From assembly GCF_902652985.1 (NCBI RefSeq), contig NC_047026.1, forward strand, positions 11,904,001 to 11,968,000: a stretch of DNA of 64,000 nt, in the 5' to 3' direction. Source of the DNA: Pecten maximus. Its lineage: Eukaryota. Made by a program: the position numbers and the translations under genes. Within the stretch, counting starts at the first letter, position 1, and every line of letters starts with the position of its first letter. Shown in pieces: positions 50,979 through 51,632 of the stretch. Under the pieces are notes generated by a model, which saw only the letters and a list, made by a program, of their open reading frames with translations, was not told where the DNA came from and did not search any database.

Positions 50979-51632
50979 TTACAAAAATACTGTTTGGTTT
51001 GGTGAACAATCGTAACAGGAAAAAAAGCTTTCCTGGTTGTGGTGAGATAAATCGCAAAATTCAACATTATCCAGAATGTCTCCAATATATTCGGGCATAG
51101 TTAACATACAGTTTTTCAGTTTTTCCCACTGCTCAAATGATAGAGCAACTCCTGCACGTGTTGGTTTAAGTTCATTTGTACTGGGGTCTGGCATAAACCA
51201 ACGACGAATGTTCACCTTAGGGAACCCTGTCTGTAGTGATACATGGTTATTTCGTCCCAAATGAATCCTGAGGTCAATTTCATCACCTTCTTTATATTTT
51301 CTAATAGCCTCATCCACAGTTTTACAATGTAACATTTGTAGTTTTTTCCAGTGTTGGGGGGTGAGAGAAACTCCTTTTTTTGTTGGATAAAGTTTACCAC
51401 TGGCATTGGTATCGTAGTATCTGATATGGATCAGTGTTCTTCCCTGGAACTCATTAGCCACTACAAAACAATCGTTGTCTATGTCCAATTTACAGTAATC
51501 GCCGACCTGTCTTGGAGCAACTTCCGTTTCCTTAGGATGAACAGTTTGTACCGCTTCATCGATCATCAAAGACCCGTCTTCATCATATGGGGTTTCCATA
51601 CTAGCTGAACGTACGAGTTTTCTATCCGTCAT
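50979..51632 (-). CDS. Tandem PC4/Sub1-domain protein (putative ssDNA-binding protein) with a C-terminal Cys/His cluster, inside the Polinton
   Basis: Repeat 1 FQGRTLIHIRYY...PTKKGVSLTPQHWKKL and repeat 2 KVNIRRWF...KPTRAGVALSFEQWEKL both match the PC4 pattern (IDIREYW...PGRKGISL..EQW..L). Confidence 0.85.
   Translation of the reverse strand: MTDRKLVRSASMETPYDEDGSLMIDEAVQTVHPKETEVAPRQVGDYCKLDIDNDCFVVANEFQGRTLIHIRYYDTNASGKLYPTKKGVSLTPQHWKKLQMLHCKTVDEAIRKYKEGDEIDLRIHLGRNNHVSLQTGFPKVNIRRWFMPDPSTNELKPTRAGVALSFEQWEKLKNCMLTMPEYIGDILDNVEFCDLSHHNQESFFSCYDCSPNQTVFL

Follow-up and report, generated by a model that had tools for sequence, protein, structure and literature searches.

The window, i.e., the whole 64,000-nucleotide stretch of Pecten maximus DNA analyzed here, contains a Polinton of 13,002 bp (39135..52136) that starts with AGCAGC, finishes with GCTGCT and is flanked on both sides by the 6-bp target duplication TATATG (Table 1). 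Polintons/Mavericks are marked by terminal inverted repeats (TIRs), 5'-AG ends and a 6-bp target-site duplication (TSD), all of which are present together with a protein-primed family B polymerase (pPolB), an rve integrase and an A32-like ATPase. Pfam recognized the integrase (rve, E 1e-7), the polymerase (DNA_pol_B_2, in three pieces) and, weakly, the ATPase (Pox_A32), with relatives of the element matching more strongly; the candidate capsid and protease ORFs gave no Pfam match, though they are conserved and of fitting size and order, and the capsid, core and protease names in Table 1 are our assumption from size, order and sequence. Compared with natural relatives, seven of the nine core ORFs are broken, with ~10 breaks over ~9.4 kb. 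The insertion site lies in a LINE, within the reverse-transcriptase (RT) region, and the LINE halves on either side join up across the target duplication. Elsewhere in the window, two similar exon sets (22799-24883 and 61732-62110) look like host genes that we take to be monocarboxylate transporters (MFS), and the 231-aa product of a single-exon ORF (7513-8208) begins with a signal-like part and presumably resembles intradiol ring-cleavage dioxygenases. Judging by their translations, the other mobile elements are presumably a DUF7869-like one (18235-21443), a LINE (278-4293), a Gypsy-like pol (54791-57239) and a hAT-like piece (30212-31709).

The gene of interest is an ORF of 654 bp that runs from ATG to stop without interruption just inside the right TIR, its start codon ~150 bp from the TIR inner edge, in the same orientation as pPolB (both on the minus strand). 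The original prediction had placed an open 217-aa frame here, in this orientation, with two PC4-like repeats and a C-terminal C-x3-H...C-x2-C cluster, and all of this was borne out: Pfam PC4 (PF02229) matches the protein in two stretches (E 3.2e-24; 84.6 bits, with a curated cut-off of 25), and the cluster reads C193-x3-H197...C206-x2-C209. Among PDB sequences, it is closest to chains of human PC4 (E 4e-8). The N-terminal 43 aa have a net charge of -4 and low AlphaFold confidence; many relatives start straight at the PC4 domain.

Table 1. Features of the Polinton and its surroundings in the window, with examples of related genes at other loci (locus:positions)
Feature	Position	Strand	Basis or remark
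LINE reverse-transcriptase part, cut by the Polinton	37767..39128	-	sequence, Pfam
6-bp TSD, left copy	39129..39134	.	
Left TIR, terminal AGCAGC, internal minisatellite	39135..39400	+	inner edge approximate
rve integrase with chromodomain end	39462..40629	+	Pfam; one frame break
Probable minor capsid protein	40673..41089	+	unbroken; no Pfam match; name assumed
Probable core-protein gene	41096..41468	+	one frame break; end approximate; name assumed
Probable major capsid protein	41581..42902	+	one frame break; start approximate; no Pfam match; name assumed
Probable adenain-like cysteine protease	42899..43359	+	one frame break; name assumed
A32-like packaging ATPase	43504..44181	+	weak Pox_A32 match; two frame breaks
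Two small conserved Polinton ORFs	44228..44944	+	one frame break, in the second ORF; first ORF unbroken
pPolB	45165..49254	-	DNA_pol_B_2; 3 breaks; low end approximate
Tandem-PC4 gene, 217 aa, intact	50979..51632	-	ORF list, Pfam, AlphaFold
C193/H197/C206/C209 cluster, predicted zinc site	51006..51056	-	conservation among homologues; metal binding inferred
PC4 repeat 2, residues 120-183	51084..51275	-	AlphaFold, residue counts
PC4 repeat 1, residues 45-114	51291..51500	-	PDB sequence match, AlphaFold, structure alignment, residue counts
Putative TATA-like box, ~75 bp upstream of start codon	51705..51711	-	present in the C5 sister copy too
Right TIR	51778..52136	-	inner edge approximate
6-bp TSD, right copy	52137..52142	.	
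LINE endonuclease/5' part, beyond the right target duplication	52143-53748		endonuclease name assumed from motifs
Minimal TBP core, examples	L098:2402-2911; L104:1461-1967; L105:1264-1770; L108:3097-3603		
Minimal TBP core, own genome	L073:472-831		
PC4-fold genes with a likely transmembrane segment	L055:8031-8498; L059:8272-8826; L105:4682-5140; L168:8772-9245; L238:4408-4932		

Predicted fold and DNA-contact residues

The AlphaFold2 model of the 217-aa product, built on a 125-sequence alignment (mean pLDDT 87, pTM 0.77), has the order bbbba-linker-bbbba followed by a short helical C-terminal part, with a four-stranded sheet and a helix in each repeat, as seen in both the model and the structure alignment. 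Hence, the product is predicted to be a single-chain, helix-swapped PC4 pseudo-dimer, as had been proposed. The modelled topology agrees with that of the type I PC4-like domain, in which bbbba-linker-bbbba repeats pack as an intramolecular dimer (Janowski and Niessing, PMC7549692). Foldseek ranked human PC4 and PURA I-II at the top; in VIA-align the model superposed on human PC4 (1pcf) with an rmsd of 0.9 Å over 66 residues (repeat 1) and on PURA I-II with Z 13.3 and 3.7 Å over 132 aligned residues. The type I proteins (PURA repeats I-II, Whirly and MRP1/2) have the predicted intramolecular fold in common with the 217-aa protein (Z 12-13 to PURA), but their identity to it is only 8-11%, and since both of its repeats are true PF02229 members, the fusion would be independent of these proteins. 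With the type II proteins (human PC4, yeast Sub1 and MoSub1; PF02229) it shares the sequence family, the fold of the repeat and most DNA-contact residues; unlike them, it is predicted to be single-chain rather than homodimeric, has lost W89 in repeat 1, has gained a CHCC module, lacks a Ser/Lys-rich N-terminal region, and is intronless and mobile. The PC4 homologue of phage T5 (PDB 4bg7; Z 7.5, rmsd 1.6 Å over 48 residues) likewise offers a viral PC4 fold tied to DNA replication, being described as a replication factor, but it is a homodimer of single repeats, and T5 replication is recombination-dependent, not protein-primed (PMC7549692). Feature matches in the ESM Atlas, all below 0.9, serve as leads only; the top structure row there is a 174-aa cluster with a viral (Preplasmiviricota) label, the phylum being known for one member.

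PC4 contacts DNA through R70, F77, R86, W89, R100 and K101 (PMC4350104), and we followed these positions in the 217-aa protein and in 150 diverse homologue representatives listed from the E<=1e-30 search. Repeat 1 of the window protein keeps the equivalents of F77, R86 and R100/K101 and lacks that of W89; among the 150 homologues an aromatic residue is found at the F77 position in 127, R86 in 135, and an aromatic at the W89 position in only 5. In repeat 2, R86, the W89 equivalent (F146) and R159 are kept, with an alanine at the K101 position, where the family's repeat 2 keeps the lysine; across the homologues, R86 is present in all 150, an aromatic W89 equivalent in 143 and a basic R100 equivalent in 132. 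The beta2-beta3 hairpin of repeat 2 is shorter and carries a conserved aromatic, F137 (hairpin aromatic in 119 of the 150). The best-kept feature of the family is the CHCC cluster, with C193 found in 147 homologues, H197 in 146, C206 in 146 and C209 in 147, and it likely binds zinc. The two halves are thus unequal, since W89 is lost in repeat 1 and kept in repeat 2. Most of the ssDNA-binding residues are retained, and the protein is predicted to bind ssDNA.

Distribution, position in the elements and origin

An exhaustive search gave 190 clusters (50% identity) matching at E<=1e-30, most of them without a name, and a profile search beyond the own genome returned 202 proteins, the best 120 of which include sequences from Pecten, Ylistrum, Mizuhopecten, Mytilus, Ruditapes and Mactra; Crassostrea and Argopecten are further named sources. 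In Pecten maximus itself, 37 matches were grouped into 30 places, a count which includes weak matches, matches to the second repeat only and small contigs that are possibly haplotype copies. A Polinton core gene lies within the 10-30 kb fetched at 26 of these 30 places, compared with 0 of 20 control stretches, each 20 kb long; within the fetched flanks of the other four (C17:15.09M, C4:48.83M, C17:16.23M and C2:53.57M) no core gene was found. Core genes also occur at 9 of 33 metagenome loci, including all five with at least 2.5 kb downstream. The expected linkage to Polintons was therefore supported, as was sharing of the gene by sister and distant elements, and most of the PC4-fold matches checked in Pecten maximus lie in such elements. 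The gene accompanies capsid genes 26-75% identical to those of the window as well as two polymerase types. Scans of IMG/VR for tandem PC4 returned single-domain phage PC4s only (one locus, then two). The tandem-PC4 gene is common to many aquatic-animal Polintons and absent from others; its named members are from bivalves, and most clusters are unnamed.

The original prediction had further inferred a replication module of pPolB and two fused PC4 domains, which as a fixed unit was not supported. In the window's element and its C5 sister the tandem-PC4 gene lies upstream of pPolB; six other places (C13:28.46M, C13:28.56M, C4:45.60M, C17:14.79M, C3963 and C1:52.19M) have it upstream of the integrase, and in L098, L104, L105, C2:43.87M and C5:5.56M it occupies the far end of the element and faces the core genes. 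It usually does not adjoin pPolB. Moreover, two TIR-bounded elements with pPolB (L221/L222 and L237/L238, with 99%-identical TIRs) gave no tandem PC4 at E<=1, and conversely the TIR-bounded element L055/L056 contains a divergent tandem-PC4 copy and no pPolB. We therefore rejected the fixed module, as gene orders vary and presence is uncoupled in TIR-bounded elements, and regard the gene as accessory rather than core, because TIR-bounded pPolB elements exist without a detectable copy. A core SSB of the phi29 p5 or adenovirus DBP type is expected in all autonomous members, where the polymerase would need it; the distribution seen for tandem PC4 is not of this kind. A capsid search of the own genome gave 118 matches, far above the number of places with the tandem-PC4 gene, and at 20 capsid-centred loci picked regardless of PC4 the CHCC tandem-PC4 family was found at none and a more distant tandem PC4 at four; L221/L222 and L237/L238 are among these 20. 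As a side observation, one high-copy family of the own genome (L217/L218 at C3:52.04M and L219/L220 at C10:3.13M) carries integrase, ATPase, capsid and protease between long inverted arms; pPolB was not detected in it, and many copies score identically in the capsid search. Two derivatives of the C13:30.1M element (L164 at C12:29.96M and L167 at C19:7.89M; 84-98% protein identity, long perfect inverted arms) are missing both pPolB and tandem PC4.

To examine the origin of the repeats, 132 single domains were placed in a quick tree over 65 columns, from which row P0275 was left out and in which 72 of the 129 inner branches are open. First repeats (46) cluster together with SH-aLRT 90 and second repeats (46) with 97, and the 25 host SUB1 domains make up a separate third group (72), so that each repeat has its own group apart from host SUB1. 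Since the first and the second repeats each form a single group, the tree fits an origin of tandem PC4 by one old duplication, separate from host SUB1. With its two domains, acidic N-terminus (net -4) and separate tree groups, the protein does not behave as a host SUB1/PC4 orthologue, and a recent capture of host SUB1 is largely ruled out by this separate grouping and by SUB1 being a separate, intron-bearing gene on C9. A one-off capture that sister elements do not share, which the original prediction had named as its possible undoing, is likewise contradicted by the 190 clusters.

Selection seems to have acted at the level of lineages. The dN/dS ratio is 0.09 between the window and L002 and 0.16-0.21 for five other unsaturated pairs, with two further pairs saturated at silent sites, whereas against the C5 sister (91-94% nucleotide identity, frameshifted) the window copy shows pN 12/486 and pS 3/135, a ratio near 1. 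Purifying selection between lineages (0.09-0.21) was thus recovered, but none on the window copy; to judge from these alignments, it acted while the elements were active, and the copy looks neutral since insertion. The prediction that the ORF is uninterrupted amid frameshifted core genes was correct as a description, but it carries little weight, because at the element's rate of breaks a 654-bp ORF is expected to survive unbroken with P ~0.5; two other ORFs of the element are likewise unbroken. An ORF "intact because selected" was rejected on both grounds, chance survival and the ratio near 1 against the C5 sister.

RNA libraries have a bearing on the same point. Part of the stretch is found in 6 of 24 RNA-type runs, with next to none in the other 18. 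In one of four runs examined (three studies), a run on record as RNA-Seq, a contig spans 50875-51788 with 19 differences and no gaps, and contigs from the other runs examined partially cover the ORF stretch; their identity to the ORF is ~98%, gap-free. No contig in the runs examined crosses 50600-50874, which carries no weight either way. These contigs therefore show only that a close gap-free copy exists in the libraries, strand and level not being visible and DNA being a possible source. Together with the unbroken ORF inside a dead element and the expression of bay-scallop homologues, with a blastula peak (PMC9223095), they are what could be held to favour two related readings, that host SUB1 was captured recently in a single event, or that the ORF is now a domesticated host gene which selection on the scallop has preserved. 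Given the separate C9 gene and tree group, the excess of neither substitution class against a frameshifted sister, and the chance of ~0.5 that the ORF survived by luck, we regard both readings together as very improbable.

Neighbouring genes and possible function

We propose, with a probability of about 0.45, that tandem PC4 is a dispensable ssDNA-binding helper of protein-primed, strand-displacing Polinton replication. The protein would bind ssDNA via its concave sheets, mainly in one channel, and coat or chaperone the strand displaced by pPolB. Fusion may have allowed the two PC4 halves to diverge, and loss of the stacking residue W89 from repeat 1 suggests that the two DNA channels are unequal, which would fit one displaced strand better than the two strands of an open bubble. 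The role of the CHCC module may be to stabilize the fold or to mediate contacts with itself or a partner; where an element has no tandem PC4, host RPA or host PC4 could substitute, and the window copy would be decaying neutrally along with its dead element.

The neighbourhood of the gene points to a second possibility. At 16 of the 33 metagenome loci or, after clustering at 80% identity, in 6 of 15 clusters (which leave out L115, L119 and L124, with no ORF passing the filter), tandem PC4 is followed on the same strand by a two-repeat TBP core (~169 aa, Pfam E 1e-24 to 1e-28), starting less than 10 bp past the tandem-PC4 stop in L104 and L100; the TBP of L117 has a stop and was left out of the TBP alignment. 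Because an element-borne TBP so often follows the gene in metagenome relatives, a transcription role is a real rival: tandem PC4 might be an element-encoded basal cofactor that acts on the melted promoter bubble, as PC4/Sub1 does in Pol II initiation, with host or element TBP, and drives the genes of the element. The independence of the gene from pPolB speaks for such a cofactor, as does the part that PC4 plays in TFIID-dependent preinitiation (PMC9223095). On the other hand, BIR genes are found in the adjacent position just as frequently (10 of 33 loci, 6 of 15 clusters), so that this zone looks like a general accessory region, and many of the metagenome contigs derive from few sources. In the own genome a TBP lies nearby at one place only (C8), the window's element and the remaining places fetched being without it. 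Coactivation by human PC4 depends on its lysine-rich N-terminal part, and short members of the family have no basic N-terminal region. A predicted complex of the L104 TBP with tandem PC4 scored 0.01 in two runs (mark 0.34) without alignments, which has no weight for or against. Overall, we consider the cofactor role rather unlikely.

Among the neighbours at several metagenome loci there are also CARD-RING genes, and a scan of 24 longer homologues found CARD-PC4x2 fusions in 4. These fusions (P0309/P0383, P0030, P0249 and P0311) include one 170-member cluster with Crassostrea angulata proteins. Possibly, then, tandem PC4 is a host-interaction protein that hides or buffers the single-stranded nucleic acid of the element from host sensors, nucleases or repair and belongs, with BIR and CARD-RING, to an anti-defence cassette, and its place in the variable subterminal zone agrees with this. 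However, the CARD fusions are a minority and the window's element has no CARD or BIR gene, nor a TBP gene, and we hold the shielding role to be improbable.

Returning to the helper of strand-displacing replication, the PC4 fold alone does not fix the function, because the same elements carry a likely membrane-anchored protein of this fold. In many elements we observed a second PC4-fold gene, whose product has one PC4-like domain with several N-x-T motifs behind a hydrophobic and likely transmembrane segment; the gene falls into a tree group of its own (SH-aLRT 96), is absent from the window's element and is possibly a membrane protein made from a DNA-binding fold.

Published sequences and wider meaning

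The gene type is already partly on record, under a label in one adintovirus and, in what seems to be a misassignment, once among host genes. The best BFVD match is MOSUB of a Branchiostoma lancelet adintovirus (UniProt A0A5H3CIS2; 203 aa; E 4.6e-9, TM 0.60/0.64 over 200 columns), the product of a Polinton-type virus whose label names a Sub1/PC4 homologue; the match is a structural one, at 18% identity, and MOSUB may belong to this CHCC family or to another tandem PC4 family. In the portions examined, MOSUB and SSDBP are given as map labels only (Suppl. Fig. S2, Starrett et al., 2021; PMC8502044) and neither tandem structure nor function is discussed; "mosub" occurs 0 times in the main text. 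One figure legend of that paper brings up TBP, for MELD viruses of non-animal datasets.

The second case concerns the bay scallop AiPC4 genes (Arg0233380.1 / Arg0244310.1; WBW30869.1), one of which shares 47% identity with the window protein across 208 aa (E 4e-70) and groups with it in the tree. The two genes were described as single-exon, with two PC4 domains, in a "scallop-specific clade" (Liu et al., 2022; PMC9223095), and were published as host paralogues from a stress-linked gene expansion; they peak in blastula, one of them also in gonad and after heat. In the same paper the 2-18 "PC4 genes" per bivalve genome are read as host stress adaptation, and the text examined makes no link between AiPC4 genes and Polintons. 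We infer that these single-exon, two-domain scallop genes likely sit in Polintons and have the same viral origin. The "AiPC4" of a bay-scallop GWAS is a multi-exon gene on chromosome 15 (PMC8328476). In the literature outside subscription journals and Repbase reports we found no functional description of a Polinton PC4, and the searched portions of PMC11131425, PMC10748475 and 10.1101/2025.04.19.649669 mention no PC4, coactivator or SSB under the terms asked.

Taken together, and put forward as a tentative picture that is possible rather than probable, PC4-fold proteins may have undergone an old radiation of their own within aquatic-animal Polintons, in which the fused, asymmetric and zinc-capped single-chain branch would be the first recognizable ssDNA-binding protein of animal Polintons and, with a minimal TBP, a basal-transcription kit in some lineages; such a radiation, and not host duplication, would explain much of the bivalve "PC4 expansion" and its blastula, gonad and heat-stress expression. 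The expression of bivalve "PC4 genes" may report element activity, and the frequent pairing of PC4x2 with TBP suggests that animal Polintons encode basal transcription factors of their own. These findings bear on the ways in which Polintons deal with the displaced strand and regulate their transcription, for which the family offers a small, soluble protein with a confidently predicted structure that is directly testable, and a natural single-chain PC4 with unequal halves would be useful for asking what role each DNA channel has.

Other PC4-fold genes were seen along the way. Further tandem PC4 families without CHCC occur in Polintons (L059:5111-5602, L065:5056-5445, L256:1228-1815 and L227:8591-8911), and some Polintons hold three PC4-fold genes. 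Two genes that combine zf-PARP with PC4 (L160:1246-1998 and L163:1629-2453) have no Polinton gene nearby, resemble the bay-scallop zf-PARP AiPC4s and are probably host genes.
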